A stretch of DNA of 24,000 nucleotides, from the NCBI RefSeq assembly GCF_042684865.1, contig NZ_JBHUML010000005.1, positions 204,186 through 228,185 on the forward strand, written 5' to 3'. Every line of letters starts with the position of its first letter. Position 1 is the stretch's first letter. The notes below the pieces were generated by a model. That model ran no database searches. It saw only the letters and a program-made list of their open reading frames with translations, and was not told where the DNA came from. A program made the position numbers and the translations under genes. This DNA comes from Salibacterium lacus (GTDB lineage Bacteria; Bacillota; Bacilli; Bacillales; Marinococcaceae). Shown piece by piece: positions 1 to 18,176 of this stretch.

Positions 1-35
1 TCAGGATTTATTTATACACAAAACGAAGGAGGAGA

Positions 36-752: not shown

Positions 753-957
753 GAAAAAAATAAAGGGAACCCCGATGCACGCATATGACGCTGCGGCATC
801 GGGGTTTTTCTCGATCGATTCTCGTGATTTCCTGATTGATTCTGTTATTTCTCGATCAATTCTCAGTCGATTCCTGTATTTCTCGATTGATTCTCCCGAT
901 TTCTCGATTGATTCTCTCGATTTCCCGATCGATTCTCCACATCTCCGCTTCGATCCC
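738..957. repeat. copy A of a ~200-bp repeat: gene 3' end and terminator hairpin plus a phased array of GAT(T)TCTC-like half-sites
   Basis: Aligns by eye at roughly 85% with 3287-3492. Contains 13-14 half-sites (TTCTC/TTCTG/TTCCT cores at 810, 821, 831, 842, 851, 862, 873, 882, 893, 903, 914, 924, 935, 943) spaced 8-11 bp apart. Confidence 0.85.
770..810 (+). terminator. rho-independent terminator of the 36..752 gene
   Basis: Stem CCCCGATGC (770-778) pairs with GCATCGGGG (796-804). The loop is 17 nt and the stem is followed by TTTTT (805-809). Confidence 0.7.
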
Positions 958-1170
958 CGACTTTATCTACCTGGATAGCAGCTTGCTCTTCATAAAAGGA
1001 GAGTAAGGCCGCCGGGACCAAAGCGTGTCCTGCCTTCATCCGCGGCAGTTCCCTCCAGAAACGAAAGCACCCGCCTCCGCCGTTCCACGACCTGCTGTGT
1101 AAAAGTCAGTCATGTTTTCTTCTCCAAGTTATGATTATTTGGTTATCCCGGGGTCGGGGGCGGATTCAGT

Positions 1171-2730: not shown

Positions 2731-2797
2731 CTTTTCCTCCTCCTTTATTTCCCATTTATTTCAAACGGTCCTTTAACACGAAAAACATTCTTTATGT

Positions 2798-3290
2798 TCA
2801 AACAGTCCTGCATATGTACCACTTCCCCGGCAAAATCACGAATCCCGCCGGAATCTTTTCATCCACCAGCTCCTTTTCTGCATTAAAATGGGAGGCATGC
2901 ACAAAGACATATCCAGCCCGGAAAAACAGCCTGCGATCAGCTTTAACTGATTTTCGCTGTCCATCCCAAGACCTTGTGGCGGCGTGTACGGACAGGCGCC
3001 AGATCAAATAAATTTTTCAGTGCCCCGGTAAACGATCCCTGAAAAATCGGCGTGCCGATAATATCATAATCCGCCACCTTCATTTTCTGAATGACGCGCC
3101 GGGTATCGCCTTGATACGCCCATGAGCCGCGCCCGTCGCAAAACGGAAGTTCATAATCCTTTACGTTCAGAAATTCCCCCTCGATATGCGAATCATGATA
3201 TTTTACCAATTCCAATGTTTTCTGTACAGCGTAAGCGCCCTGGGCAGCCACGAGTGGCTCTACGTCGCACAGAAAATGTAAGCGCCTCCG
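2798..3290 (-). pseudogene. NAD(P)H-dependent FMN reductase, decayed (5'-truncated and frameshifted)
   Basis: Central part reads as a flavin reductase (DYELPFCDG..., ADYDIIGTPIFQGSFTGALKNLFDL). The N-terminal beta1/phosphate-loop region and a credible start are missing where repeat copy B begins. The C-terminal part (...FVHASHFNAEKELVDEKI...) continues in another frame (ORF 2798..3007), so there is a frameshift near 2950-3000. Confidence 0.65.
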
Positions 3291-3492
3291 TCCGTTCTCA
3301 GGAGAAAAATAAAGAAAACCCCGATGCACGCACATGACGTTCGCGGCATCAGGGTTTTTCCCAATCAATTCTCCAAATTTCCTGATCGATTCTGTTATTT
3401 CTCGATCGATTCTCAGGCGATTTCTGTTTTTCTCGATTGATTCTCTCGATTTCTCGATCGATTCTCCGGATTTCTGCATCGATTCTGATTCT
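3287..3492. repeat. copy B of the ~200-bp repeat (orphan terminator hairpin plus phased half-site array)
   Basis: Hairpin CCCCGATGC (3319-3327) pairs with GCATCAGGG (3346-3354), followed by TTTTT, with no plus-strand gene upstream. 12-13 half-sites have cores at 3371, 3381, 3392, 3401, 3412, 3424, 3432, 3443, 3453, 3464, 3474, 3485 and 3491, a mean spacing of about 10.4 bp. Confidence 0.85.
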
Positions 3493-3506
3493 TTTTGCAT
3501 CACTCC

Positions 3507-3550
3507 CCCCCTTTTTTACCTGTGTCCCCTTATATAACAGGAAAAGGGGG
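3507..3550 (+). promoter_or_regulatory. inverted repeat / RNA hairpin that would sequester the Shine-Dalgarno of the wHTH gene
   Basis: CCCCCTTTT (3507-3515) pairs with AAAAGGGGG (3542-3550, the SD). Inner stem CCTGT (3519-3523) pairs with ACAGG (3537-3541). There is a 3-nt bulge and a 13-nt loop. The ATG is at 3558. Confidence 0.4.
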
Positions 3551-3557
3551 AACCGCT

Positions 3558-4235
3558 ATGGAACAGATTCAATCCGACGCCCATATGGAAACCGCTGTCC
3601 GCTATTCTTATTTTTCCTCGATCGACCAAATGGACCGGCACGTCAAAAAGCACCGCCGCACGCTCACCTGGCAGTCGACGGAGGACGCCGTGCTCTGCCT
3701 GCTCGCCCGGCGCTCACTCTCCTACCCCGGCACGAGCTGGATGAAAGTGAAAACGATCGCCGCCGCGGTCGGCAAAAGCCCGCGCACCGTGAACTACGCC
3801 CTGGCCGCCCTTGAGGAAAAAAAGATCATCCGCCGCATCCCGGTCATGCGCGAAACAAACGGCGGAAGCAGCAGCAACGTCATCGCGATCCTCCCGTATG
3901 CCGCGGATTGCAGCCCGTCTCCTGCAGACCGCCAAAACGCCGGAACCCCTTGCCGCGCAGGCGCTGAAGCGTCGGAGGCGTCCGGGGAATCAGTTTCTTT
4001 AGAATCACTTAAACAAGAAAAATATAAATATATGAGCTATTTGAATTTTTCCTGGTTAATTCATCACAAATGGAAAGACAACTGCGTGAAGCACGGCTCG
4101 GCTTATATGGAAAAAGTCGTCGAGTCGTTGATGCGGGAATATGAATACCGGCAGATGAAAGAACGCCTCCGGAAGCCCCGCCCGCGCCGCATGCCGCGGC
4201 CTGCGTTTCTCGACTATAACTGGCTTGAGCATTAA
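3558..4235 (+). CDS. winged-helix-turn-helix DNA-binding protein, plasmid/phage replication-initiator-like
   Basis: SD AAAAGGGGGA lies 7 nt before ATG 3558; 225 aa. The wHTH-like segment is AVLCLLARRSLSYPGTSWMKVKTIAAAVGKSPRTVNYALAALEEKKIIRRIPV...GGSSSNVIAILP. The C-terminus is basic. The gene sits immediately downstream of the phased repeat array. The ORF-track start at 3495 has no SD. Confidence 0.75.
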   Translation: MEQIQSDAHMETAVRYSYFSSIDQMDRHVKKHRRTLTWQSTEDAVLCLLARRSLSYPGTSWMKVKTIAAAVGKSPRTVNYALAALEEKKIIRRIPVMRETNGGSSSNVIAILPYAADCSPSPADRQNAGTPCRAGAEASEASGESVSLESLKQEKYKYMSYLNFSWLIHHKWKDNCVKHGSAYMEKVVESLMREYEYRQMKERLRKPRPRRMPRPAFLDYNWLEH

Positions 4236-4247
4236 TCGCTTTTCCGT

Positions 4248-4307
4248 AAAAAAAGCGCCATCGTTACGTTTGCCGTCTTTTTTCCCCGACAAACGTAACC
4301 ATGGCGC
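4248..4307 (-). terminator. rho-independent terminator (minus strand, downstream of the AraC-family gene)
   Basis: 18-bp inverted repeat GCGCCATCGTTACGTTTG (4255-4272) / CAAACGTAACCATGGCGC (4290-4307) with 1 mismatch and a 17-nt loop. A-run 4248-4254 on the plus strand gives a U-run after the hairpin on the minus strand. Confidence 0.6.
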
Positions 4308-4341
4308 TGTCATGATGACGTTTTTTCATCAAAAGCCGTCT

Positions 4342-4404
4342 CTAAACGTAAGGATGACACGTTCATGGTGACGTTTAGCTGTCTTCGGACAGGTATAAAC
4401 GTCA
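4342..4404. repeat. cluster of nested inverted repeats sharing an AAACGT/ACGTTT core
   Basis: GTGACGTTTA (4368-4377) pairs with TAAACGTCAC (4395-4404) and encloses CTGTC-TTCG-GACAG (4379-4392). CTAAACGT (4342-4349) pairs with ACGTTTAG (4371-4378). Counting the terminator arms, the ACGTT core occurs 7 times in about 150 bp. Confidence 0.55.
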
Positions 4405-4405
4405 C

Positions 4406-5284
4406 TTAAGAAGATGTCCGCTGGACCGGGATCCAGATTTCACTGCGGAAGCTGGTGGATGTCGTGTCGCTGCTTTCATTCCAGAGAATCTCCGGACCTT
4501 CCGCCGCTTCATAGCCGGAGCCGGGAAACCATTCGGAGTAAATCCGGCCCCAGACGTCCTGCAGCGCATCCGGAAACGCGCCGGCGGCTTCAAATACCGC
4601 CCACTCGGACGCCGGGACGCGCAGTTCATCCCAATGCACGGGCACATCGTTTGTAGTCGCCGCGCCGATGTAATGATCAAACGTCCCGTTTTCCTCCATA
4701 CGTCCTTCAGAAAAATGGGTGGACGCACTGATCAAGCCGGAAGGTTCGGTGTTGGACAAGGCTTTCAGCTCCTGGATGTTCGCTGAATCAAGCGACTGCC
4801 ACATCTCCTCAATCTCCGGACTCACCCCGTGGAACTGCACAGCCACTCTTTTTTTCAAGCCGGCGATGGAAAACGATTCTTTTTGTACGATACGATACTT
4901 CATGCTTTCTCCTCCTTGGATTGTCAGCTGGAAGGTCATCGGAGGATAGGCCTGCAGCGGTGCCCCATCCTTTTTCGCGCGGGAGGGGGAAACTCCGTGC
5001 TGCGCCTGGAACGCCCTCGTGAAAGCATCCGGCGAGTGGTATCCGTATTTCACCGCGGTATCCACGACTTTCGCACCGCCCTGCTGCAGCTCAACAGCCG
5101 CCAGCGTCAAGCGGCGCCGACGGATGTATTCGCCCAGTGTCATGCCGGCGAGAAACGAAAACATCCGCTGGAAATGGTAAGCCGAACTATAAGCGGTCCG
5201 CGCCGCTTCTTCCATATCAATCGTGTCAGCCAGATGCTCCTCCACATAGCGGAGCGCGTCATTCATCCGTTGCAGTGAATCCAC
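4406..5284 (-). CDS. AraC-family transcriptional regulator with C-terminal GyrI-like effector-binding domain
   Basis: N-terminal AraC HTH region ([37 protein letters not shown]...[22 protein letters not shown]), followed by a GyrI-like half ([16 protein letters not shown]...EIWIPV). The probable start is GTG 5284, preceded by GGGAGG with 7-nt spacing. The ORF itself is open to 5338. Confidence 0.9.
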
Positions 5285-5404
5285 ACGATGACCTCCCTCT
5301 TTGTAATCCTTTCTCCTGTATCGTATCAACAACAGCACCCGGCTTCCCGACTTTTTCTGCCCGATGCCGCAGGATTACCCTATAGAGCTGTGGAGATCTT
5401 TAAT

Positions 5405-5929
5405 TTATTCGGCTGATTCATAAAGTACATTTCCATTTTGACCGTAAATATTCACTTTCCAATCCGCTTTGAGGTTCATATCCTTTTCGTTCCTATTATA
5501 AAACATTATGAATCCTCGTTTATCTTTCACTAATTTTGATACAGTTTTACCATCATTAAAAACCACTTCTACTGTTTCTGCGTTTTGAATTAAATGTTTG
5601 TCATTTATGATAACGAAAGCGTGAGGAGCACTTCCTGTACTAGTCATCCCTGTGGATATCTTTCCCTGCCCATCACCAGACCAACTCGAATAGTTTTCTG
5701 TTATTTCCCCGTTACTTTTTGTAATTGTATACAAGCTGCTTTTACATAAAATAAAAGTTACGCCTCCGGTAGTTTCGATGGCTAAAGGCTCAATGTTCTT
5801 CTTTTCTATCATTTGTTCAATTTCCTCTTGTGATGGTGCAGAATAGTTTGACCCCTCCGCACCATTTGAGCACCCTATAGTTATTGATAAGATTATAGCT
5901 GAAAAAATAAATTTAGTGAAATGCTTCAT
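5405..5929 (-). CDS. lipoprotein, function unknown (AT-rich islet)
   Basis: Signal peptide plus lipobox MKHFTKFIFSAIILSITIGC-SNG. ATG 5929 is preceded by GGAAGGG. The gene is much more AT-rich than its neighbours. Confidence 0.75.
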   Translation of the reverse strand: MKHFTKFIFSAIILSITIGCSNGAEGSNYSAPSQEEIEQMIEKKNIEPLAIETTGGVTFILCKSSLYTITKSNGEITENYSSWSGDGQGKISTGMTSTGSAPHAFVIINDKHLIQNAETVEVVFNDGKTVSKLVKDKRGFIMFYNRNEKDMNLKADWKVNIYGQNGNVLYESAE

Positions 5930-6005
5930 AAAGACCCTTCCAAACATTCAATTTATTAAGCTGTATAAAACTTCCCTTTGGCCTGGTAGATAAGCAATAT
6001 CCTAT

Positions 6006-6407
6006 CTATTCGACAATTTGAACCAGTGGAATAGAGACTCTGTTCATCATGGAGAAAAAGCTGTACAACCCCGTGCCCATTAAAAACAGGACACAGGGAA
6101 CGGCGCTCAAGAGATACGTCCGCCGTCCTCCCGGGATGCGGGTGCGGTGCCACATGACGGCGAGGTACGCATAGTGAAGCACCGGCAGGAGAAAAATCAG
6201 GATGCGGTAGGAAGGAAACATAGTGAGGGTTAAAACTATAACGATGTGCACCATAACATACAGTGATTTATCTATGTATTTGTGCCGCTTATTAACATAA
6301 TCGGGATCAGACGCCGGAAGTTCTACAATGCCGCCCCGGCGCAGTATGTATGACAGGAATTCACTTAACACAGCAATGCCGGCTATAAGGGCAACTGGCA
6401 GCAGCAT
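6006..6407 (-). CDS. small integral membrane protein, function unknown
   Basis: ATG 6407 is preceded by AAGGAGAG. 133 aa with about 4 hydrophobic segments. The upstream part of the 163-aa ORF overlaps the neighbouring gene and has no SD. Confidence 0.65.
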   Translation of the reverse strand: MLLPVALIAGIAVLSEFLSYILRRGGIVELPASDPDYVNKRHKYIDKSLYVMVHIVIVLTLTMFPSYRILIFLLPVLHYAYLAVMWHRTRIPGGRRTYLLSAVPCVLFLMGTGLYSFFSMMNRVSIPLVQIVE

Positions 6408-6460
6408 CGTTTCGATTCTCTCCTTTTCTCTATCGATACTCAAAAGGCCGGTATCGCTTG

Positions 6461-6925
6461 TTATTCGGAATACGGCACACTCCGCGCCCGGCACCACTGC
6501 CGCATAAATTCGAGATACCCATCGAGCCGGTAAGCGTTCCAGTCTTCCTGAAGGCCGAGCTCCACGACGCGGTCCTGAAAACGTCGGAACCGGCCCGTCC
6601 CGGTCAACTCCCGCTCGAGCATCGTCCGCATCATCGGGTTGGAAAGCTCCCGGACAAATGCCTCCATCAGCGCGGACTCATCCACCTCGAGCCGGTTCGG
6701 CAGCGGCAGGTAGTCATCCTCTGTCGCCGCCACTACATCAGCGGCCGCGCGGAATTCCTCGTCATCACGCGCATCCGGCGCCTGCAGCTGCGCCCGCCGC
6801 AGCACGTCATCGCTGATCCGCAGGACCTCTCCCGTCTTTCGGTGCAGAAACATCGTCACCCCGTCCGGCGCATTCCGGACCGCTTCGAGCAGAGAGGATA
6901 GATTCACAGACTGTTCCACCTGCAT
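6461..6925 (-). CDS. UPF0158-family protein
   Basis: Strong SD (GAAAGGAGGAG-ATG). The acidic protein carries the family-typical features ...TGEVLRISDD..., DDYLPLP and TGTGRFRRFQDRVVELGLQEDW...WC. Confidence 0.8.
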   Translation of the reverse strand: MQVEQSVNLSSLLEAVRNAPDGVTMFLHRKTGEVLRISDDVLRRAQLQAPDARDDEEFRAAADVVAATEDDYLPLPNRLEVDESALMEAFVRELSNPMMRTMLERELTGTGRFRRFQDRVVELGLQEDWNAYRLDGYLEFMRQWCRARSVPYSE

Positions 6926-6958
6926 CTCCTCCTTTCCATTATGGTTCGCTGTACTATT

Positions 6959-7921
6959 TTAATCGTCACGTATCAAAAAACGCGGAACGACACGTATATA
7001 AACGAGTTCGCTGACAAGCTCTATCATCGTCTGGGTAATAACAACAGCAGCCACGATAGTGCCAATTTCCGGTATAGTCAGGGCAATAGGCAGCACAACG
7101 AGCGAATTCCGCGTGGAACAGCTGAAAATAAGAGCCCTTCCTTCGCCCGGCGCTAATCCAAACCACCGCGCCGCGTACTTCGCCACAAACGGCATCACCA
7201 TCATAAACACGATATATAACGGAATGACTTTTACAACCTGATCCGCATAATCCGGCAGTTTTGTCATTTGAGACGCCGTCACGACAAACAGCGTCAACAT
7301 CATAAAAGGAACCGGCAGCCACGCCGAACCTCGCAGCATCTTTTCACCAAATGCCCTGTTTTTCCCGACAAACTGTAACAACAGCGCTGCCGCGAGTGGA
7401 AGGACGATCAACCCAAAAAACGCTTCAAAGAAAGGAGCAGGCTTCACCATCGCGGCAGCATCCGCCCCCATAAACAGCCACAAATACACGGGCAGCAGAA
7501 CCATCTGCACGACGAATAATATCGGGGTCGACGTTAACACCAGGTTCTCATCTCCTTTTCCTAAGGAGGTAAACACAATGACATAATCAATACAAGGCGT
7601 TAACAGCACCAGGTAAAATCCAAGCAGCAGCGCAGGATTCTCAGGAAGCAGCTGGGATAACAGCCAGACTACGACCGGCACCAGGATAAAATTAACCAGA
7701 AGAAGCGCCTGGATATACGTTCTGTTCCGAAAAGCCTCTCTTAACGAAGCAAACGGAATCTGGGAAAACATACTGTACATTAACAATGCAATGATGATTG
7801 AAATCACAGCACCCAGGCGCTCCGCGTAAGATGGCAGCAGAAATCCGAATCCAGCCGCCATGATGAAACTTATGATATACATCCCCACCTGCTTCGTTTC
7901 CAGCTGCTCCTTCGTGACCAA
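6959..7921 (-). CDS. ACR3/bile-acid:Na+ symporter (BASS)-superfamily transporter ('arsenic resistance protein'-like)
   Basis: About 10 TM segments. The sequence style matches ACR3/BASS-like permeases (LVTKEQLETKQ...; LLTPCIDYVIVFT...; FSCSTRNSLVVLP). The likely start is TTG 7921, with GGAGG 8 nt upstream. The ORF is open to 7957, and ATG 7882 is an alternative start. Confidence 0.85.
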   Translation of the reverse strand: MVTKEQLETKQVGMYIISFIMAAGFGFLLPSYAERLGAVISIIIALLMYSMFSQIPFASLREAFRNRTYIQALLLVNFILVPVVVWLLSQLLPENPALLLGFYLVLLTPCIDYVIVFTSLGKGDENLVLTSTPILFVVQMVLLPVYLWLFMGADAAAMVKPAPFFEAFFGLIVLPLAAALLLQFVGKNRAFGEKMLRGSAWLPVPFMMLTLFVVTASQMTKLPDYADQVVKVIPLYIVFMMVMPFVAKYAARWFGLAPGEGRALIFSCSTRNSLVVLPIALTIPEIGTIVAAVVITQTMIELVSELVYIRVVPRFLIRDD

Positions 7922-8075
7922 TATCCTTCCCTCCCATTCTTCACAGACCTTTTCCAATAAATTATACAGAAAGACACCCCATTTTCACAAAAAACCAACG
8001 ATCCTTCAGAAAACAAACACCGCTTTCCGTATTTCTACCGGATGCGGTGCTGCTTCTCTTTTTCCACCCAACCTG

Positions 8076-8396: not shown

Positions 8397-9698
8397 GTGA
8401 TTAAGGAACATAAGGTAACAAAAGTTGGACAAATGAGGGAATCATTAAACCTTTCGGTTAAAGAAATTGCCCGTATTCTAGGTAAAAGTGAACGGACAAT
8501 ATATCGATGGGAAAAAGGAGAGGCCTCCCCACATCCACAATCTCTATATGAACTGGAGACACTCTACAATAGAACTTTTGAAAAAAATTCAGGAACTGAC
8601 AGGTTGTTTACTTTTATAGATCTGTTTGCTGGGATAGGAGGGTTACGGAAAGGAATGGAGTCAATTGGAGGAGAATGTATTTTCACAAGTGAATGGGACA
8701 GTGCTTGTAGAGAAACTTATCGAGCCAACTTCAATTGTGATCATCCACTCGAGGGAGATATAAACAGTGTTCCCATTGGTGAAATTCCCTCACATGACGT
8801 ACTTCTCGCTGGATTTCCATGCCAACCTTTCTCAATAGCCGGGGTCTCAAAAAAACAATCGCTGGGAAAAGAAACCGGATTTAAAGATCTTGCACAAGGT
8901 ACACTTTTTTTTGATCTTGCTCAGATACTTGAATATCATCGTCCCAAGGCCTTTGTTCTTGAGAACGTTAAAAACTTAGTTAGCCACGATAAGGGTAACA
9001 CTTTTGAAGTTATATGGAAAACCTTGACTGAGGATCTTGGTTATAACGTGGACTATAAAGTTATTGATGCTAAAGGGTGGCTTCCCCAGCATAGAGAACG
9101 AATTTTTATTGTAGGTTTTCTAAATGAAACTGATTTCTCTTTTGAAAATATGAATATAAAAAATCCGGCAACAGGGCCGACACTATCCTCAATTCTTCAT
9201 CCAGAGGATGGAAGTGAAGAGCCGGAATCTCCATATACGTTAGAAAAAAATGCTGAGGTAAATAAAAAGTATACTTTAACGGACAAATTGTGGAGTTATC
9301 TTCAAAATTATGCAGCAAAGCACAAAAAAAAGGGAAACGGATTTGGTTTTGGATTAGTAGGCCCTAACGATACTGCCAGGACACTTTCTGCCCGTTATTA
9401 TAAAGATGGATCTGAAATTTTAATTTATCAAGGTGAAAATACCAATCCGCGTCGCTTAACACCAAGAGAGTGTTCCAGGTTAATGGGTTTTGATGAACCT
9501 GAAAAACCACCTTTCCGTATCCCGGTATCTGATACTCAAGCCTATAAACAATTTGGTAATTCAGTTTCAGTTCCCGTTGTGAGAGATATTGCTAAATTTA
9601 TGTTGCCGTATTTACTAAAAGAGCTTCGCATCAAAAAGTTTAAGCAACTCAGTCTCATAGAAGCTGAGGAAATTAAGGAAGCAGAAGAATATGTCTGA
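8397..9698 (+). CDS. dcm: DNA (cytosine-5)-methyltransferase, Dcm/EcoRII-type, with N-terminal XRE-like HTH domain
   Basis: Motif I FIDLFAGIGGLRKG, IV GFPCQPFS, VI ENVKNL, VIII QHRERIFIVG, TRD RTLSARYYKDGSEILI, IX LTPRECSRLMGF, X QFGNSVSVPV. N-terminal HTH LSVKEIARILGKSERTIYRWEKGE. Starts at GTG. Confidence 0.95.
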   Translation: MIKEHKVTKVGQMRESLNLSVKEIARILGKSERTIYRWEKGEASPHPQSLYELETLYNRTFEKNSGTDRLFTFIDLFAGIGGLRKGMESIGGECIFTSEWDSACRETYRANFNCDHPLEGDINSVPIGEIPSHDVLLAGFPCQPFSIAGVSKKQSLGKETGFKDLAQGTLFFDLAQILEYHRPKAFVLENVKNLVSHDKGNTFEVIWKTLTEDLGYNVDYKVIDAKGWLPQHRERIFIVGFLNETDFSFENMNIKNPATGPTLSSILHPEDGSEEPESPYTLEKNAEVNKKYTLTDKLWSYLQNYAAKHKKKGNGFGFGLVGPNDTARTLSARYYKDGSEILIYQGENTNPRRLTPRECSRLMGFDEPEKPPFRIPVSDTQAYKQFGNSVSVPVVRDIAKFMLPYLLKELRIKKFKQLSLIEAEEIKEAEEYV

Positions 9699-10149
9699 TA
9701 TAATGTCTGATGAATTGCGCAGCAAGGTAATGTCCCGGATTAAAAACAGCAATACTAAACCTGAGCTTATTATCAGAAAAGGTCTTCACGCTTTAGGCTT
9801 TCGCTACAGGATTAATGTTAAAAATATGGCTGGAAAACCTGATTTAGTTTTACCAAAATACAAAGCTGTTATCTTTGTAAATGGATGTTTTTGGCATGGC
9901 CATGGTTGTTCTCTATTTCAATGGCCAAAGACAAAAATAGAATTCTGGGAGAATAAGATAACTTCCAATATCAATAGAGATTTAAATAACACACGTTATT
10001 TAAATTCAGTAGGTTGGAAAGTTGGAACCATATGGGAGTGCTCTCTCAGAGGAAAGTACAGAAAAGATACTGATGTTGTAATTAATAGCATATCCAAGTG
10101 GGTAAAGCAATCAGATGATAACCTTGAAATCAAAGAACACGATCATTAA
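9691..10149 (+). CDS. vsr: very-short-patch repair endonuclease (Vsr)
   Basis: NTKPELIIRKGLHALGFRYR, GKPDLVLPKYKAVIFVNGCFWHGH, FWENKI..N..RD, GWKVGTIWEC. The start overlaps the methyltransferase stop (ATGTCTGA, 8-nt overlap). Confidence 0.95.
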   Translation: MSDIMSDELRSKVMSRIKNSNTKPELIIRKGLHALGFRYRINVKNMAGKPDLVLPKYKAVIFVNGCFWHGHGCSLFQWPKTKIEFWENKITSNINRDLNNTRYLNSVGWKVGTIWECSLRGKYRKDTDVVINSISKWVKQSDDNLEIKEHDH

Positions 10150-10194
10150 AGGCAGGCTAAGTAAATCTTTTATTCTATGGGTGGTGAGTACAGT

Positions 10195-11418
10195 ATGAAA
10201 CAGGGATATTTATCACAATATTTTCAGGGAGTCGTATTTAAACGTTTGAGCAGTGTTGAGATTAATCCCAGCAGCTCAAACCAGCATGAAATAAATGGAA
10301 CGATAAAGTTAAAAGAGATATTCGGCTCGGACAGAAAAGATTTCAGTGGTTATTTTTTTTGGATAGGCTCTGAAAATGAAGGTGCTTCAGCAAACGGTAG
10401 CGTAACTTGGTATGATGCACGGGCCAACCATCCAACCAGATCAGAATTTAGACTTTATTACAGTGATAAAGAAGTTGTTACTTCTTGTGATCCAGGCGAC
10501 CTTTTAGTTATAGCTAAACGTTCTGATCAAGAAGTTCTTTTCTTAACAGCTCCTGAAGGTAGTACTACTGAGAACCAGTTGCTTTGGCTTTTCGATATAT
10601 CGTCTACCAGTTACTCCTTTAGTTATCAAATATTTAATAAAGAAAAAAGCACTGAAATGGACTTCGTTTCTCGTTTTATACTAGAGGAAATGGGAATAGA
10701 AATCCATGAACCTGAAACTGATAAAATAGATAAAATCCTGGAACCATACTTATACCGAAAGTTTCCACCTACTAAGAAAGTAGCTGAACTGGCACGTGAA
10801 ACAGCGCTTACTTATTCTCCAGTGCACAATCCCGACGTTACATTAATGACATGGGCAGATTACGAAGAACGACTTTTTCGCAGATTAGAACGTTATGAAT
10901 TAAGTGAGCGCTTAAAAGAGGGATTTTATGATTATCAACACGACGAGAGTGACGTAGATGGATTTATCAGCTACTCTTTACGAGTTCAGAACCGTAGAAA
11001 ATCCAGAGCTGGTCTTTCACTTGAACATCATTTAGCTCATATATTTGAACAAAACAACATTAAGTTTTCTCAAGGTCAAACAACAGAGAATAAGTCCAAG
11101 CCCGACTTTTTATTTCCTGACATTGAAACTTATCAAAATACTAGTCAACCAGAAGCTAAATTAACAATGCTTGGAGCCAAATCCACGTGTAAAGATCGGT
11201 GGCGCCAAGTTTTATCGGAAGCCGACCGTATCACAAATAAACACTTACTAACTCTCGAACCAGCTATAAGTGAGCATCAAACCAATGAAATGATCAACAG
11301 TAAATTACAACTTGTTCTTCCTTCAGCTCTACATGAAACTTATACTGAGAAGCAAAGAGAATGGCTTATGACCCTTCACGAATTTATTGACATGGTAAAA
11401 GCCAAGGAAATAAAGTGA
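10195..11418 (+). CDS. type II(E) restriction endonuclease, EcoRII family
   Basis: The C-terminal catalytic half matches remembered EcoRII blocks: NRRKSRAGLSLEHHL, KPDFLFP, LGAKSTCKDRWRQVLSEADRI, HLLTLEP, LVLPSAL...LMTL. The N-terminus has an EcoRII-N-like VFKRLS segment. ATG 10195 is preceded by GGTGGTGAG; ATG 10177 is an alternative start. Confidence 0.9.
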   Translation: MKQGYLSQYFQGVVFKRLSSVEINPSSSNQHEINGTIKLKEIFGSDRKDFSGYFFWIGSENEGASANGSVTWYDARANHPTRSEFRLYYSDKEVVTSCDPGDLLVIAKRSDQEVLFLTAPEGSTTENQLLWLFDISSTSYSFSYQIFNKEKSTEMDFVSRFILEEMGIEIHEPETDKIDKILEPYLYRKFPPTKKVAELARETALTYSPVHNPDVTLMTWADYEERLFRRLERYELSERLKEGFYDYQHDESDVDGFISYSLRVQNRRKSRAGLSLEHHLAHIFEQNNIKFSQGQTTENKSKPDFLFPDIETYQNTSQPEAKLTMLGAKSTCKDRWRQVLSEADRITNKHLLTLEPAISEHQTNEMINSKLQLVLPSALHETYTEKQREWLMTLHEFIDMVKAKEIK

Positions 11419-11485: not shown

Positions 11486-11791
11486 TTATTCAATCCTTGA
11501 ACGAATTGTTTTCCAATCCGAATCTTGTTCATCTATTACAGTTAAAGCTTGATTAACTGGCATTTGGTGAAACAAACCTTTGTGTTCATTGTATAAACCC
11601 AAATGATGTAATACTCCTGCGGATTGAAACCCTTTTGAAACAAGCGGCGATAGATTAAGAATGTCCTCGTCCAGTTGACGGTGGGGTTTGAAATAGAAAA
11701 GATATTCATATACAATTTGATTTATTGATGCTTCATCGTAAAGTTTAAATTCACGCGATCTCAGTGATGGACGAAGGGGTGGCAAGTACAT
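11486..11791 (-). CDS. hypothetical protein (101 aa)
   Basis: AAGGAGAG lies 5 nt before the ATG. AT-rich island composition. No domain recognised. Confidence 0.6.
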   Translation of the reverse strand: MYLPPLRPSLRSREFKLYDEASINQIVYEYLFYFKPHRQLDEDILNLSPLVSKGFQSAGVLHHLGLYNEHKGLFHQMPVNQALTVIDEQDSDWKTIRSRIE

Positions 11792-11842
11792 TTTTTCTCT
11801 CCTTTTGTTAAACTGGTCCTGTAATTAACGAGGTAAGATATC

Positions 11843-12133
11843 ATGTATAATACGATTCTTTATTATCAAATGAATCAGGGACAAAGTTCAGAGACTATCA
11901 TTCCATATATGGAGCAGGTTATCTCAAAGATTAAAGAACTACCTGCCCATATACATGGGGTATTTATTGACGCTCCTGACGAGTACAAAGAATTTGAAGA
12001 GCTTATTGATAAACCCTTGAAACATATTGATTATATTTATCTAAACAGACAATTAAAAGATCCTTTCTATCACACAATGCTTGAACAAGTCTTAATAAAT
12101 GAATCTGTGTGCACAAAATATTTTGAGCTATAA
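11843..12133 (+). CDS. hypothetical protein (96 aa)
   Basis: GAGGT lies 8 nt before the ATG. Divergent from the 101-aa gene across only 51 bp. No domain recognised. Confidence 0.6.
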   Translation: MYNTILYYQMNQGQSSETIIPYMEQVISKIKELPAHIHGVFIDAPDEYKEFEELIDKPLKHIDYIYLNRQLKDPFYHTMLEQVLINESVCTKYFEL

Positions 12134-12162: not shown

Positions 12163-13402
12163 TCACGCCTGTTGATTTGACACAAATATCCATGAAAATA
12201 TGTACAAAAAGAGACATCCTCATCTAGAATGGCGTTGCGACACAACATTCAAGAAAGGATGTCTCTCTTGAATCATCGTATAACATTCCCGAACTTACTC
12301 CAAAAACCAGATCTGGATGATAAGCTACAGGAGCTCTTAGAAAACCTTCGGTTATATCGATACCGGCCGCAAACTGACGGTCTTTACCCTGCTTCACTAC
12401 GTAACGAATGCTTCGGCTCATGCATGGACGGGCTACCGCCAAAGTGCTTTGGAAGGGCCCCGGCATGAGCTGCCGGAGGTGGGAACATTCCTCGCTTTCT
12501 AAAAAAGCGGGAGATGTTCCTTATACGATTTTTAAAAAGCTGATCCATACGTTGGTATCCATGTGCAACCGCCCTACCCGCCGGGCTTTGAACCTCGATA
12601 AGAATCTGCTTGTTATCAATGCCACGATGATCACCGCAGGGGAAAACCGGCTACCCTTGGCGCTTTATCACAGCAGGCGTTCCGGCGTGAAGCTTCATAT
12701 AGCCTATACACCTTCTACGGGACGAGGAGACCGGGGCGCGAAAACATATCGGCCCATCGGGCCATCGTTGAACCATCGTGGTTCGATTCTTGTCGAAGAC
12801 CGCGCTTATTTTAAGATCCAGCGCATCGATTCCTTTTTAGGGGAGAAGCAGTCATTTGTCATCCGAATGAAAGAGAATGTAGAAATTGTCCGACCCAAAT
12901 ACTTAAAAGCGCTGAAAACCAAATACTCCCGTGTCACTCGTGATATCACCTGCCAGCTCGGTTCTGCTTAGGTTCGCTCCCAGCAACGACATCGCGTGGT
13001 ATTTTTCCAAGATGACGATGGGAACGATATGCGCGTCGTGACGGACCTCATGAACATATCGGCGGAAATCATTGCCGACATTTATCGGAAACGCTGGCAG
13101 ATTGAATTTTTTCCGCTGGACCAAGCAGCATTTGAACATTCCGACGTTGTTTGGAACAACGCCAAATGCCGTGTTCCACCAACTTTACGCCGCTTTGATC
13201 ACTTATATCCTGCTGCGCTGGTTATATCAGCGTACCTCCAAAGGAGAAGTGATGGAAACGCTGTCCTTTATCTCCTTCACACGCCATTTTCTGGCTCAAA
13301 GTCTACCGATTGACTGGCTGAGTGAAATGGCTGCTTCCTTAAAAAGATGGAGGCAGGCTCACGGGACAAATATGTTAAATGGTGGATAATAAACAGGCGT
13401 GA
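12163..13402 (+). mobile_element. decayed IS4-superfamily insertion sequence
   Basis: Terminal inverted repeats TCACGCCTGTT (12163-12173) / AACAGGCGTGA (12392+1000, i.e. 13392-13402). The interior encodes transposase fragments in three frames. G+C is higher than the surrounding island. Confidence 0.75.
12229..13389 (+). pseudogene. IS4-family DDE transposase, multiply frameshifted
   Basis: Fragments include ...LLVINATMITAGENRLPLALYHSRRSGVKLHIAYTP..., ...ILVEDRAYFKIQRID... and ...IADIYRKRWQIEFF / FFRWTKQHLNIPTLFGTTPNAV... (Y-x2-R-x3-E-x6-K signature). They are split over ORFs 12229.., 12408.., 12996.. and 13072... Confidence 0.8.
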
Positions 13403-13546
13403 TGTGTGATATCTCTGCCATCCCTTATAACATTTTATTGATGTATGACGGCCAAGAAAGGCTCCTACAAACGGCAATTAAAATCACTTAAGAACTTATC
13501 ATCTATTAAAATTTAAATCCACTATTTTCTATAATTCTAAAAATAA

Positions 13547-14581
13547 CTATGAAACTGAACCAATTTTATCAAGTAATGACATAAAATATTCCCCTTGAAT
13601 TTTAGAGACTCCTGGGGGAAAAGCATTGCCAATCATCTGTGCCAAAGAAGTCTTATTCTTTAAAACAGGAAACCTGTAATCAATAGGAAATGTCTGAAGT
13701 AGAGCGGCTTCTCTTGCTGAGATACTTCTGTTTTGTTCAGGGTGTAAAAACCTCCCTTTAGACGGGCTTAAACAACCACTTGTAATAGTTGATGATAACT
13801 GATCCCAACTAAGCCTCCCATATACATCTGAAAAACCTACGCCCCCCTTCTTATGGCATTCAAGCCAATATTCTTGAGGCAGGTCCTTTCGACTCCCACC
13901 ATCACCAGGGATTAATGTAATCATTTTCTTTATTCTGTCATTATGCTTTGAGTGAATAGAATGTAGTGAATCATCAGTTTCTTCAGGTTTTTCTAAGCCA
14001 TATATGCAATCTCTAACAGTTGTTTGTTTAACTGAATCCCCTATAGGAACCTTTATATTTTTATTAAGCAAAGAACCCATTAAAACTAATCTTTTTCTTC
14101 TTTGTGGCACTCCAAAATCAGCCACATTAATAATTTGATAATCTATCCCATAACCTAAATAGGTTAACTCCTGAATTGCTTCATTAAAATGTAAGTAATC
14201 TTTCAGCCCTGGTACATTTTCTACCATAATAAAAGTAGGCAATAATTCTTTGACGATTCTAATGAATTCAAATATCAATTCATTTCTTTTATCTTTCAAA
14301 CTATTCTTTTTCTTTTTTGTTTTGAGTGTAGAAAACCCTTGGCATGGTGGACACCCTGCAATTAATGTAACATCCTCTCCAATTTTTTTAATCAGTTCTA
14401 CACCACTTACTTCTTTTATATCTTTGTTTACTAATTTCGTGGATGGGTGGTTTTCAATGTAAGTTTGAGATGCAGTTTGATCTATTTCAACTGCTCCTCT
14501 AACATCAAAGCCAGCCTGTTTCAAGCCTTCACTTAACCCTCCACAACCCGAAAATAAATCAATTGCTACTGGTTTCAACAT
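13547..14581 (-). CDS. DNA (cytosine-5)-methyltransferase (second, unrelated specificity group)
   Basis: Motif I AIDLFSGCGGLSEG, IV GCPPCQGFS, VI ENVPGL, VIII QRRKRLVLMG, IX ISAREAALLQTFP, X IGNAFPPGVS. ATG 14581 is preceded by GGGAGGGAGA and lies 23 nt inside the upstream ORF. Confidence 0.95.
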   Translation of the reverse strand: MLKPVAIDLFSGCGGLSEGLKQAGFDVRGAVEIDQTASQTYIENHPSTKLVNKDIKEVSGVELIKKIGEDVTLIAGCPPCQGFSTLKTKKKKNSLKDKRNELIFEFIRIVKELLPTFIMVENVPGLKDYLHFNEAIQELTYLGYGIDYQIINVADFGVPQRRKRLVLMGSLLNKNIKVPIGDSVKQTTVRDCIYGLEKPEETDDSLHSIHSKHNDRIKKMITLIPGDGGSRKDLPQEYWLECHKKGGVGFSDVYGRLSWDQLSSTITSGCLSPSKGRFLHPEQNRSISAREAALLQTFPIDYRFPVLKNKTSLAQMIGNAFPPGVSKIQGEYFMSLLDKIGSVS

Positions 14582-16418
14582 TCTCCCTCCCATCTTTCAA
14601 TACATCTTTATTTATCATACCAAGAAATTCATCTAAAATCGCATATATTATATTATAGTTAGAATCTTTTTTCTCTATCCAATTATTAATTAATATGTTT
14701 TCCATAGTGTCCATTGAGTTTGAATCTGTTTTTCCTATATGATTTTCGCAGGCCTTATATATTTTTTCTTTATTCGACTCGGCATTAGAAACATTTATAT
14801 GTTTCTCTTCACCAATTAATGATTTTATAAAGCATTCATCCCAAATTATATCTTCTGGAATTTGAAGAGGAAAATATCTAACATTAGATTTATAAAAAGA
14901 TATGTATTTTTCTTGTGCTTCAACTATCTGGTCTGACCGATCTTCTCCTGAACCTCCATCTTTAGTAAAAAATATATCAATATTAGTGAATTCTTTAATT
15001 TGATTACTGTAGAAGTCCTCGTTCCTATTACCAATAGAAACAGAGTTAAGGTCAATAATTTCTTCGTCGGGCTGTTGATCTCCATCTAATATTACAAAAT
15101 TATTTTTATTAACGTCTTGAGAGTAATAAGTAATTAGGTTCTTTTTTATATAACTTTCTCCACCCGGACAAAAAATAACATTTATATCCTCAAATTTATC
15201 TTCTTTTTCCAAAATGATCTTTAAAATCTTCTCTGCTAATTCATCTTCGACAGTTATGGTGGCATTATTATAGGTAGAGGGTAGTCCAAGGAACCTAAAT
15301 GCTTCACTTGGAAAACACTCATTTATAATATCAATCTTTTTCGTTTCTGGATTCCTCATAAATCTTTTAATGGCTCTTCTAGGTAATCCTTCTGTAAAAG
15401 CAGGGGAATGAGTTGCAATTACTACTTGATGTCTTTTTCTTTTTATTTGTTCTAACAGAAAAGACATCAACTTTTTTTGAGCTCCAGGATGTATAGAAAC
15501 TTCCGGTTCATCAAGGAGTATTAAACTTTTTTCTTTTGCTCTTAATACTTCATAAACTAATTTAACAACAGATATTTCTCCACTACCTGCGTGTGCTTCT
15601 GAGTAAGTTAATTCATCTGTATTTAGTATTACTGAAGTTCCCCAGTCATAAAAAAATTTGTGCTTAATTACTTTTCCAGAAGTATATTTTTCTTGTAAAA
15701 TAAAAGAAATTGCATTTATTTCTTCTTTTGTCAAATCAACTACCAATTCATTTTGTTCTTGATTTTTCAATTTATAAACCTTTCGATTATCAATTGCATT
15801 TTTTAATTTTTTAGATTGATTTCTCAAATAATCTTTTTTTGCAGCTTTTTTCTTTTTCAAAGTAGACTGCCTCAATTTAACTTTTGATTGAGGTAGACTG
15901 CCAAAATAAAAATATTTATCAAATGCACTTAACTCACCTTTAAAGTCAAGATAAACTACGTCTTTTTTAATAATATTACCTCTTTTTTCAGAAGTATCCA
16001 TGCCATATTTCTCTAGTGGTTTACTAGTCTCCCAGTAATCATAATCATTTCTACCTTTATGAAAAATTCGATGGTATAAAACCGTTTCACTAGTATTTCC
16101 GTCTTGATATTCATATATGAAACTATGTTTTTTATCTTTGTCGGTATCACCAAATTCTTCAATAGGGTCTAAATTTGTTGAAAACCAAAAATCACTTATA
16201 GATAGTAACTTGGGTGCACCATATAAAGAGTGTAGAACTGAACTTTTACCTGATCCATTTTTACCCACCAAAAGTGTAAGAGGAAAGTCAAATGATATAT
16301 CGGTATCAAAAGTGAAATTTTTATATGATGGATATCTTAGACTGGTAATAAAACTATCAAAAACTTGAAGCTCAAACAGACGTTCAAGAGTCGATATCAA
16401 GTCTGTTTTTTCTTCCAA
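14559..16418 (-). CDS. ABC-type (AAA_15/OLD-like) ATPase with C-terminal Toprim/DUF4435-like region
   Basis: Walker A LLVGKNGSGKSS, signature-like HAGSGEISV, Walker B LILLDEPEVSIHP, H-loop VIATHSP. A long Lys-rich insertion lies between Walker A and the signature. The C-terminal E...GG...DxD pattern is ITVEDE / CPGGES / VILDGDQ. The likely start is TTG 16418 (GGGGG 6 nt upstream); the ORF is open to 16433. Confidence 0.9.
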   Translation of the reverse strand: MEEKTDLISTLERLFELQVFDSFITSLRYPSYKNFTFDTDISFDFPLTLLVGKNGSGKSSVLHSLYGAPKLLSISDFWFSTNLDPIEEFGDTDKDKKHSFIYEYQDGNTSETVLYHRIFHKGRNDYDYWETSKPLEKYGMDTSEKRGNIIKKDVVYLDFKGELSAFDKYFYFGSLPQSKVKLRQSTLKKKKAAKKDYLRNQSKKLKNAIDNRKVYKLKNQEQNELVVDLTKEEINAISFILQEKYTSGKVIKHKFFYDWGTSVILNTDELTYSEAHAGSGEISVVKLVYEVLRAKEKSLILLDEPEVSIHPGAQKKLMSFLLEQIKRKRHQVVIATHSPAFTEGLPRRAIKRFMRNPETKKIDIINECFPSEAFRFLGLPSTYNNATITVEDELAEKILKIILEKEDKFEDINVIFCPGGESYIKKNLITYYSQDVNKNNFVILDGDQQPDEEIIDLNSVSIGNRNEDFYSNQIKEFTNIDIFFTKDGGSGEDRSDQIVEAQEKYISFYKSNVRYFPLQIPEDIIWDECFIKSLIGEEKHINVSNAESNKEKIYKACENHIGKTDSNSMDTMENILINNWIEKKDSNYNIIYAILDEFLGMINKDVLKDGRENVETSSN

Positions 16419-16551
16419 TTTAATCCCCCACAATAACGTATAGTGCTTTATTATATGATAAAATACTCTTCAAATCCGTAATTATCTTTTATTTTACCAT
16501 TTTTCTTCTTAACTCTAAAGTTGCATAATCACAAACAGGAATATCTAATAG

Positions 16552-17807
16552 GATGAATATTTCACTTTGGAGCTTGCATATCTCCTTAGGCAATCATCAA
16601 CTCTTTTTCAAGAGACTGCAGGGACACGCCCTTTTGGGCTTTCTGATAAACATAGAGCAGGAGAGAACGGCGTCTTTCCTTGTCAGCCCGCCAATATCCT
16701 GTAGAGAATTCCTGCTGGTAATGCTGCGCGATAAATGTATAGGCAAGTTGAAGTACCAGCATGTACCGCTTAATAGCAAAAAGGGATCGCAGCCTGTAAT
16801 CCCCCATATAAAGTTTGTCTTTCGTTTCCTGAAAAAAGGTTTCGATGTTCCAGCGTTCAGCGTAGAAAAGCAGGATCTTTTGGGCGGTTAAGCTGGAATC
16901 TGTGCTGAAGAAATAGCGAACCGATGATTCGCTGGGTGCTGTATTCGTAGGCCGGCACGCCAACACTGTTCCCTGGAGTCCGCCTTTCAGCGCCCCGTCA
17001 TAGCGATGAACGTAGTAGGAAGCATCTCCTACGGTGACGATGCAGGATGTTTGGTCTTCCTTTTGTTGCGCCCATTCCCTGACGGGTTGAGAAACGCGGT
17101 CATTCAGCAGAACACGGTTGCTTTTCAGACCTCCGATGAAATGCCATCCACGTTCTTGAATGTAGTCAATTAGGAATGTGGCAGCATACCAGCTGTCTGT
17201 CAGGACATAAATGTCCCGCGTGCCGTCCGGTATTTGATCCATATGGTCCCGGGCCATATCAAGTTTCGAATAGTCTTCTTTTACATAAGGCGTCATGGCA
17301 AAGGGTAGAAAGGAGCCGCGGGCTCCTATCATCGTCGTTACCCACTGATGAGCGTAAATAGGTTTTTCTTGTTTGTGATCAAAGGGATAGGAAGCTCCTT
17401 CTGTCGGTTCCAAAGCCTGTGACGAAGGCTTGGTTTTTGGACAGATGCTGTCATCGATAATAACCATCAAGGGATCCTCGGAAGAGGATATCTGCTGAAC
17501 CTGTTGATAGATAGACCTCTGCAGCTTTCGCTGTACGCCCTGCTCGTTCCACTACCCATATTGAAAAAATCGCGTTACGGATGGGAGGTGGCGGTGCCAG
17601 AAGCTGCTGTTCCGTAGTACGGTCATACTACCATTCCGTCGCTCTTGAATCATCCCCTGCAGGAGGTGGGAAAGATGCCGGTATGCCGGTTTTGGTACAT
17701 GGAGAGACACATTAATACGATTTAAGAAATTGTCGATAGATGATGACTGTGCTACAGTAGACATATGGCAGAATCCCTCTGTGTACGTGATTGGTGGTAC
17801 ATTCATC
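16552..17807 (-). mobile_element. IS4-superfamily (IS701-like) insertion sequence, boundaries approximate
   Basis: Candidate imperfect terminal IRs GATGAATATTTCAC (16552-16565) / GTGGTACATTCATC (17794-17807), matching 11 of 14. Host-like G+C within the AT-rich island. A single transposase reading frame fills the element. Confidence 0.65.
16586..17806 (-). pseudogene. DDE transposase interrupted by one in-frame TAG
   Basis: ORFs 17552..17806 and 16586..17470 are in the same frame (1221 nt = 407 codons), separated only by TAG at 17552-17554 (...FFQYG*WNEQGV...). DDE blocks are VIIDDS, LTDSWY and YAERWNIETFFQETK. Confidence 0.8.
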
Positions 17808-17819
17808 GCATGAGCAGAT

Positions 17820-18176
17820 TTGGAGGATCTGTCTTTTTATAAACATTTATGGAATTTTTTTCTATTAATTATGCAACTTCAGAGTAAAACATTGTTCGGA
17901 AAACCGGATATCGCCATAAAAAAGTATAAGGTTGTAGTTTTCATTGATTCGTGTTTCTGGCACTGCTGTCCCGAGCACGGCAACTTCCCAAAAAGCAATC
18001 AGGATTTCTGGAAACAAAAGCTGCAGCGCAATGTGCAGAGAGATCAAGAAGTGAATGATTATTACAATGCTGTCAACTGGAATATAAAGAGGGTATGGGA
18101 ACACGAGGTGAAACAGGATTTAGACCAAGTGATTGATGAACTCAGCGGATTTATCGAATCCTGTAAAAATCATTGA
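17820..18176 (+). pseudogene. vsr: vsr remnant (N-terminally truncated very-short-patch repair endonuclease)
   Basis: GKPDIAIKKYKVVVFIDSCFWHCCPEHG, FWKQKLQRNVQRD, NWNIKRVWEHE align with the intact Vsr at 9691. The ~20-aa N-terminal SxxMxxIKxxNTKPE block is absent and the sequence begins 13 bp after the IS end. There is no ATG/SD, only a TTG. Confidence 0.75.

Follow-up and report, generated by a model that had tools for sequence, protein, structure and literature searches.

A stretch of 24,000 nucleotides (nt) from Salibacterium lacus (the window) was found to contain a cassette of two overlapping genes on the minus strand, one encoding a nuclease of the OLD family (A) and the other a C5 DNA cytosine methyltransferase (M). 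The genomic association of the two genes is clearly strong, and the mechanism it suggests can be tested. In 77 of 80 loci carrying A homologues, the gene cluster of A also contained a C5-methyltransferase, and in all four peripheral family members taken from an exhaustive search an overlapping one lay directly downstream. The A-M clade fits none of the published OLD classes (stand-alone, Gabija, retron and PARIS). We give about an even chance to the interpretation that A-M is a two-gene, ATP-dependent system resembling restriction-modification (R-M), with the OLD nuclease as its restriction component.

The first-pass annotation of this DNA had described a minus-strand open reading frame (ORF) of about 620 amino acids (aa) followed by a 344-aa C5-methyltransferase, and both were confirmed (Table 1). 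The longest ORF of A (14559-16433, minus strand) gives 624 aa from the first TTG at 16433; the true start is likely the TTG at 16418, which follows a GGGGGA Shine-Dalgarno sequence and yields a 619-aa protein identical to the database protein P0001, named 'ATP-dependent nuclease' by automated annotation. The longest ORF of M (13547-14593, minus strand) gives 348 aa from its first ATG. A and M overlap by 23 nt (junction sequence AAAGATGGGAGGGAGAATGTTG), with a GGGAGG Shine-Dalgarno sequence and the ATG at 14581 inside the A gene; the earlier placement of this ATG and its Shine-Dalgarno sequence inside the last 23 nt of the upstream ORF was confirmed on the sequence, and the overlap bears out the view of a single operon. 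Since two long ORFs occur in a stretch of 29-35% GC and have hundreds of full-length homologues, they are not due to chance.

The N-terminal part of A is an ABC ATPase head. Among the Pfam families proposed earlier for this protein, AAA_15 (1.6e-23) and AAA_21 (1.2e-21) matched at aa 43-346, whereas DUF4435 and Toprim_OLD gave no match; SMC_N was also matched. The Walker A, signature, Walker B and H-loop motifs, as well as TITVEDE, CPGGE and VILDGDQ in the C-terminal part, stand where the first-pass annotation had read them and are all invariant in an alignment of 26 homologues (39-54% identity). A helical insert in the head, at about aa 165-245, includes the Lys-rich stretch that had also been pointed out; the stretch is real, but 10 of its residues (KVKLRQSTLKKKKAAKK; aa 183-195, about 15830-15870) are an insertion present only in the Salibacterium protein among the 26, and the AlphaFold2 confidence for them was low (predicted local distance difference test score, pLDDT, 56-65).

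Through the comparison with PADLOC profiles, we found that A matched HEC-04 best (6.6e-35, aa 223-460; best stretch at profile positions 153-385 of 494), followed by the retron type I-B ATPase-Toprim profile (1.8e-24, aa 269-460); the proteins behind both profiles are fusions of an ATPase with a TOPRIM domain. Weaker matches to NsnB, AriA, PtuA, GajA and Old were restricted to the ATPase part, those of the AriA profiles covering aa 43-346. The best match among PDB sequences was 6p74, the class 1 OLD protein of Thermus scotoductus (TsOLD). With the AlphaFold2 model of full-length A, built from the family alignment (pLDDT 84.5), Foldseek also placed 6p74 first (E=5e-13 over 560 aligned columns) and ranked GajA and retron Eco8 next; TsOLD and GajA were the best hits in the structure search that had been proposed.

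A Toprim domain is present in the C-terminal part of A, as judged from invariant residues and strand order, from matches to the HEC-01B and HEC-04 profiles and from published data on the HEC metal site. E391 lies in TITVEDE, G419-G420 in CPGGE and D445/D447 in VILDGDQ, and in the models E391, G419-G420 and D445-G-D447 each stand at the C-terminal end of a successive beta-strand with helices between (b1-a-b2-a-b3). The spacing from Glu to DxD is 54 residues in A against 56 in HEC-04 (E319/D375/D377). When the isolated C-terminal domain was searched, the PADLOC TOPRIM profile HEC-01B matched at 2.9e-6 and spanned exactly the E...DxD core, and the HEC-04 profile matched 13 of 15 family members (best 6.4e-7), so the Toprim domain suspected from the E/GG/DxD pattern was found through both kinds of evidence. 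HEC TOPRIM domains share the metal site of BpOLD, and defence by HEC-04, which is toxic on induction, requires the Walker A and E/D/D residues (Payne et al., bioRxiv 2024.01.29.577857). T478, D487 and Q497 are also invariant in the Toprim region of A, and these residues, together with K550, may occupy the places of the second-metal and lysine ligands of OLD proteins.

Some searches with this region were negative. In 25 members, the C-terminal 265 aa had no Toprim, Toprim_OLD or DUF4435 match in Pfam; a profile built from this region had no meaningful match among PDB sequences, and the hhalign alignment of the A family with P2 Old was limited to the C-lobe of the ATPase. The AlphaFold2 model of the C-terminal part alone had a pLDDT of 85.6; Foldseek returned nothing for it at E<=1e-3, and its suggestive matches were the C-terminal region of BpOLD (6nk8; rank 2, E=0.1) and AriB (rank 3). 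From 1.84 billion representative proteins, the C-terminal-region profile retrieved 587 clusters, 431 of which had E<=1e-10; in every case the match lay at the C-terminus of a protein of about 600 aa. A therefore represents a compact and distinct clade of the OLD family. We assign A to this family since both defining domains, ABC ATPase and Toprim, were found, and its nuclease and ATPase activities are predicted.

The neighbourhoods of A were collected by scanning one genome per species. The 80 loci obtained (34-52% identity to A) span Bacillota, Bacteroidota, Pseudomonadota, Verrucomicrobiota, Gastranaerophilales (related to Cyanobacteriota), Patescibacteria, Acidobacteriota and others. ORFs were called, clustered and searched with both methyltransferases of the window, with a re-check by tblastn, and neighbour gene families were assigned with Pfam and PADLOC profiles. 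Preferential linkage to methyltransferases, whose absence the first-pass annotation had listed among the findings that would refute its proposal, was evident in the counts given above. Among the three loci without a C5-methyltransferase, two are cut by contig ends and one (L046) truly lacks it. A and M are directly adjacent in 33 loci, with gaps of -35 to +43 nt, and the pairwise identities of A proteins correlate with those of M proteins (r=0.77, Mantel p=0.001). In a rough neighbour-joining tree of A, the accessory genes change clade by clade with the A+M core kept. Because the methyltransferase is a conserved, co-diverging partner of A, the earlier suggestion of an orphan methyltransferase co-transcribed with an abortive-infection nuclease was contradicted, and the other reading offered, with the nuclease as putative restriction component, is favoured.

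The commonest architecture is A+M alone, which occurs in phyla far apart and in several distinct clades of the A tree; the order is A-M, as in the window, in about 21 loci and M-A in about 10. With V denoting the vsr gene, M-GHKL-A-(V) and M-A-GHKL-V make up about 14 loci, and M-HK-RR-A-(V) about 19 loci of Bacteroidota, in which HK is a kinase with HATPase_c_3, HEF_HK and HATPase_c domains and RR a Response_reg_2 protein. The remaining forms are M-R.HpaII-A (7 loci), M-R.Eco47II-A-M (2 loci), V-M-(BsaWI-like)-A (1 locus), M-(UvrD-PD-(D/E)XK)-A-V (1 locus) and DrmA-like helicase - DUF1998/MZB - M - A (1 intact locus). Vsr adjoins in about 25 loci, and homologues of R-M controller (C) proteins were found upstream of A in three (L065, L066 and L069).

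M contains all the canonical C5 motifs (DLFSGCGG, GCPPCQGFS, ENV, QRRKR, REAALLQTFP and GNAFPP) and matched Pfam DNA_methylase (3.1e-62), PADLOC MTase_II (2e-89) and TIGR00675. A methyltransferase of the same lineage occurs in 64 loci. The target-recognition region of the partner methyltransferases aligned without gaps over 93-96 of 96 positions, with a mean identity of 44% against 48% for the catalytic core (r=0.88). It is unusual for R-M methyltransferases to keep this region so alike in length and sequence in different phyla, which suggests that the partner methyltransferases share one recognition sequence, and a fixed target would be compatible with a conserved nuclease. The association with Vsr in related loci would imply that 5-methylcytosine is formed in vivo.

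Individual loci differed in several further respects. L046 (1716-9516) probably represents another mobile element; its flanking genes encode a large serine recombinase accompanied by a DUF2924 protein, and an HNH protein together with an 808-aa protein without matches. In the Bacteroidota operons of the type M-kinase-Response_reg_2-A-Vsr (about 300-8200 in L009, L011, L015, L018, L022, L025, L027, L029, L033, L034, L037 and L038), the kinase has about 990 aa and the Response_reg_2 protein about 550 aa; PDB sequence searches with the GHKL and receiver-domain partner proteins gave no match. In L041, L042, L044, L045, L058, L070 and L080, the A gene shows translational coupling to the last gene of a complete HpaII R-M system, and in L061 it follows a weak BsaWI-like gene; the methyltransferase of all these loci belongs to the Dcm/HpaII lineage, not to that of the window. 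HpaII and BsaWI enzymes have CCGG-containing targets, and the target of the family's own methyltransferase lineage may be related to such sites. In L014 (237-7797), a DISARM-like pair made up of a superfamily 2 helicase (about 940 aa) and a DUF1998/MZB protein (about 605 aa) lies just upstream of M-A in the same orientation, and the place of a DrmC-type nuclease is taken by A; the same two gene families occur in L077 (5986-13743), but there on the opposite strand and downstream of A. The fusion of UvrD helicase and PD-(D/E)XK nuclease in L030 (3017-5938; 973 aa), which lies between M and A and has GajB-like profile matches, is a lone Gabija-like hybrid. A search of 50,697 phage genomes found no A homologue, and one of 72,556 plasmids found a single distant homologue (32%) with no methyltransferase nearby.

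Among the known OLD classes, class 1 (P2 Old, TsOLD) is like A in being a single chain of similar size, with an N-terminal ABC ATPase bearing a helical insert and, at the C-terminus, a Toprim domain followed by a helical region; 6p74 is the best match of A in both sequence and fold, and the E-to-DxD spacing is likewise about 54 residues. However, class 1 proteins are by definition stand-alone genes, whereas the A clade is almost always operonic with a C5-methyltransferase. A is not a class 1 OLD protein because it has this conserved partner gene. Its C-terminal region is too diverged for matching by Pfam or PDB sequences. HEC-04 and the retron type I-B ATPase-Toprim protein gave the best PADLOC profiles, with alignments reaching the Toprim catalytic core. 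A is by these alignments related to HEC-04, but the match is partial rather than full-length and A exceeds it in length by about 125 aa; HEC-04 works on its own and the retron effector together with reverse transcriptase and msDNA, while the A clade is tied to a methyltransferase, and A was not assigned to the retron class. Gabija (GajA/GajB) and PARIS (AriA/AriB) also combine an OLD-type ABC ATPase with a Toprim nuclease, although the GajA and AriA profiles match A in the ATPase part only. A is not Gabija (class 2) because the cassette has no helicase: no UvrD-like GajB lies between the flanking insertion sequences (IS), and the UvrD-PD-(D/E)XK fusion was seen in one of the 80 loci. It is not PARIS (class 4) because its Toprim domain is fused and a separate DUF4435 protein AriB is absent.

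The cassette also resembles Type II and Type III R-M systems with C5-methyltransferase, Vsr and C-protein, in that a methyltransferase is tightly coupled to a nuclease gene on a mobile low-GC island and Vsr and controller-protein genes occur in related loci. In contrast to these systems, A is predicted to be ATP-dependent and has the Toprim fold, which to our knowledge is absent from the known restriction-enzyme folds (PD-(D/E)XK, HNH, GIY-YIG, PLD and half-pipe). PrrC and RloC are ABC ATPase-nucleases of Type I R-M operons, and PrrC is an anticodon RNase that guards the Type I enzyme. A recalls them as an ABC ATPase fused to a nuclease within R-M operons, and they might serve as a model for the M-R.HpaII-A loci, but A differs from PrrC in its Toprim nuclease, its C5-methyltransferase partner and the frequent lack of a restriction endonuclease; the window cassette has no restriction endonuclease in its operon, while about 10 related loci do (R.HpaII, R.Eco47II, BsaWI-like). 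About 33 of the 80 loci are exactly operons of the paraMORC/GHKL or HEF_HK/Response_reg_2 kind (M-GHKL-...-Vsr and M-HK-RR-...-Vsr), whose GHKL and two-component genes the window cassette lacks. The papers on paraMORC (Iyer 2008, PMC2292703) and on the two-component operons (Genome Biol Evol 2021, PMC8011034) mention no ABC-ATPase/Toprim component. In the literature we found no paper on a pair of C5-methyltransferase and OLD nuclease; a prior mention is possible, the ABC-ATPase survey of Krishnan et al. 2020 not being covered. The OLD gene of the PluTI paper is no precedent, being part of a Gabija pair, and WonAB is unrelated.

If A-M is an R-M-like system, the methyltransferase would mark host DNA at one fixed target, and A would act as the restriction component, its ABC ATPase binding or scanning DNA and its fused two-metal Toprim nuclease nicking or degrading DNA without the M mark. 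Translational coupling would ensure that the methyltransferase is made whenever the nuclease is, and Vsr, destroyed by an IS in this genome, would have repaired the T:G mismatches arising from deamination of 5-methylcytosine. We infer that methylated DNA is protected from the nuclease, which would be site- or methylation-sensitive, and that phages or plasmids would be restricted by the system. An R-M logic is the simplest account because a catalytically intact ATP-dependent nuclease is almost never found without one co-diverging methyltransferase lineage. The translational coupling, the C-proteins of some loci, Vsr and the mobile-island setting fit the same logic, as does the operon slot of A behind M-GHKL or M-HK-RR, a slot that HNH_2, MvaI_BcnI or EcoRII-C endonucleases hold in the paraMORC and two-component R-M operons described in the literature (PMC8011034; PMC2292703). 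GajA (PMC8136825) shows that site specificity is possible in an OLD nuclease.

Several points weigh against this R-M interpretation. No separate DNA-recognition or 5-methylcytosine-reading domain was detected in A, and those class 1 OLD enzymes that have been characterised lack specificity (PMC10568477). A complete Type II R-M system (M-R.HpaII-A, V-M-BsaWI-like-A) with a methyltransferase of another lineage precedes A in about 10 loci, and there, judging from the gene content, A is neither the sole nuclease nor dependent on a methyltransferase of the window lineage; in L046 it occurs without any C5-methyltransferase. OLD-ABC/TOPRIM modules in BREX and methylation-based R-M-like loci have, moreover, been read as backup suicidal effectors (PMC12839542). 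By analogy with PrrC-EcoprrI/Stp and PARIS/Ocr, A might be such a guard or backup abortive-infection effector, a latent toxin that is restrained by or monitors the methyltransferase or the R-M complex and is freed by a phage anti-restriction or anti-methylation factor. We consider this unlikely, though the least unlikely of the alternatives. The ATPase of A is closest to sensor-type OLD-ABC proteins (AriA, PtuA and HEC-04 profiles; AriA and PtuA in PDB), HEC-04 defends as a single gene without a methyltransferase, and the loci in which A is the third gene of a canonical R-M operon agree with a guard. In the window and about 30 other loci, however, the only partner is a methyltransferase, which alone gives no defence to back up; the linkage is to one co-diverging methyltransferase lineage and not to R-M systems generally, and C-protein control and Vsr match the classical R-M layout.

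A may instead lack self/non-self discrimination of its own and work as a processive nuclease that extends, or degrades DNA from, the nicks or breaks made by a site-specific partner, such as a restriction endonuclease, Vsr or a GHKL- or RR-linked nuclease. OLD enzymes, which act as 5'-3' exonucleases, can also linearise circles, A is found alongside R.HpaII, R.Eco47II, the UvrD-PD-(D/E)XK fusion and DrmA/DrmB-like helicase modules, and an EcoRII-like R-M system lies 2 kb away in the window. The two-gene forms would then be reduced remnants or rely on an unlinked partner, but they are the commonest form and recur across separate A clades and distant phyla, which is not expected of decayed remnants, and the accessory genes vary while M is constant; we regard such an accessory role as rather improbable. 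The presence of analogues of Dcm, MutL, an ABC ATPase and Vsr in the M-GHKL-A-Vsr operons also brings to mind a damage-control cassette for a mobile C5-methyltransferase, in which the ABC ATPase (MutS-like), the GHKL protein (MutL-like) and Vsr would take part in very-short-patch repair of T:G mismatches and the Toprim 5'-3' exonuclease would excise the nicked strand. The linkage is solely to methyltransferases of the deamination-prone C5 type, and a possible recruitment of repair by paraMORC systems was noted by Iyer et al. (PMC2292703). Yet most loci have no Vsr and most two-gene forms no GHKL protein, the distribution is sporadic and resembles horizontal transfer in low-GC islands with IS and R-M genes, the C-protein regulators point to a toxic gene, and the ATPase falls in the OLD clade rather than the MutS clade. 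A repair cassette seems to us very improbable.

Returning to the R-M interpretation, we put forward, tentatively and a little more doubtfully than the interpretation itself, that the clade constitutes a fifth, methyltransferase-dependent OLD class and the first restriction enzyme with a Toprim fold, in which an ATP-driven A+M core with a fixed 5-methylcytosine target gained MORC-like GHKL ATPases, kinase and receiver proteins, DISARM-type helicases, C-proteins or Type II enzymes in different lineages. OLD nucleases are at present sorted into the stand-alone, Gabija, retron and PARIS classes. If the proposal is true, methylation would be the restraint on one clade of OLD nucleases, offering a testable answer to how stand-alone OLDs are controlled, and Toprim would join the short list of restriction-enzyme folds. 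The linkage also accounts for a component that had gone unnoticed in the paraMORC and the two-component 'R-M-associated' operons of Bacteroidota. The two-gene cassette is compact (about 2.9 kb) and easily cloned and tested.

In the window, the cassette lies within a low-GC island of about 10 kb, between host genes at bases 1-8000 and from about 18200 (BCCT transporter, AraC/GyrI regulator, SBF transporter and STAS protein; 43-50% GC). The island holds an EcoRII-like R-M module, an IS remnant, the A-M cassette, a second IS and a vsr fragment (Table 1). The GC contents of the two cassette genes are 29% and 35%, and those of the flanking IS sequences 46-47%.

Table 1. Positions of the cassette, its protein features and the neighbouring elements in the window
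Feature	Position	Strand	Remarks
A, OLD-family ABC-ATPase/Toprim nuclease, 619 aa	14559-16418	-	start TTG 16418; stop TGA 14561-14559
ABC ATPase head, aa 23-350	15369-16352	-	from Pfam, motifs, PDB match and model
Walker A LVGKNGSGKSS, aa 50-60	16239-16271	-
Signature AGSGE, aa 277-281	15573-15590	-
Walker B LILLDEPEVSIHP, aa 299-311	15486-15524	-
H-loop ATHSP, aa 335-339	15399-15416	-
Toprim-type nuclease domain, aa 386-520	14859-15263	-	E391 (15246-15248), G419-G420, D445-G-D447 (15078-15086)
C-terminal helical domain, aa 521-619	14562-14858	-	invariant P517/P521/W526/K550; clade-specific
A/M gene junction	14559-14596	-	Shine-Dalgarno GGGAGGGAGA and M ATG 14581 within the A 3' end
M, C5 DNA cytosine methyltransferase, 344 aa	13547-14581	-	from ATG 14581
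Helix-turn-helix (HTH)-fused Dcm-like C5-methyltransferase	8397-9698	+	EcoRII-like R-M module
Vsr, complete, overlapping the Dcm-like gene	9691-10149	+	EcoRII-like R-M module
EcoRII-C-domain endonuclease	10177-11418	+	EcoRII-like R-M module
Degenerate DDE-transposase (IS) remnant	12224-13480	+	Pfam DDE_Tnp_1 at 12408-12971; GC 0.47; 3' boundary of the cassette
IS element, frameshifted DDE transposase	16509-17888	-	21-nt terminal inverted repeats 16509-16529 / 17868-17888; Pfam DDE_Tnp_1
vsr, 5'-truncated	17889-18176 (ORF from 17820)	+	Pfam Vsr 6.6e-12, C-terminal half (profile positions 39-68) only

The EcoRII-like R-M system (8397-11418, plus strand) is complete and 2.1 kb from the cassette. 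The cassette methyltransferase was rejected as the partner of its endonuclease, because the latter comes with an HTH-Dcm and a Vsr of its own. Between the EcoRII-like gene and the IS remnant (11486-12133) are two small ORFs in divergent orientation (101 aa, minus; 96 aa, plus), and Pfam gave no match for either of them. Surveying the ORFs and Pfam domains between the flanking IS sequences, we found no further nuclease, helicase or AriB-like gene, in agreement with the earlier remark that no other endonuclease, GajB-like helicase or AriB accompanies the cassette. The second IS sits 75 nt upstream of the start of the nuclease gene, and on the right it directly borders the vsr fragment; its inverted repeats are 90% complementary, and the transposase is split into two ORFs (17552-17806 and 16586-17470). 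A composite transposon was rejected because the two flanking IS elements share no repeats. Promoter and terminator scans of the region gave matches at chance level. One promoter-like site of the nuclease gene may be a hybrid, with its -35 hexamer (16514-16519) in the end of the IS and its -10 beyond it.

The truncated vsr gene that had been noticed near the cassette was recovered by Pfam. Its missing N-terminal part of about 40 codons was looked for across the IS, on the left side, and was not found there. The best match of the fragment (66% identity) is the Vsr beside the A-M pair of Gracilibacillus alcaliphilus (L004), and this pair is the closest relative of the window cassette; identity to the other Vsr of the window is only 35%. 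The fragment is most likely the former third gene of the A-M cassette, interrupted by the IS, and the suggestion of an ancestral module of methyltransferase, Vsr and nuclease is supported because the fragment best matches the Vsr of the closest related cassette. In L004 a PIN_8-domain protein (5767-7197, minus strand), which has no counterpart in the window, lies between the methyltransferase and vsr. In all, the island of S. lacus has two systems for C5 methylation and two vsr genes, of which one is broken.

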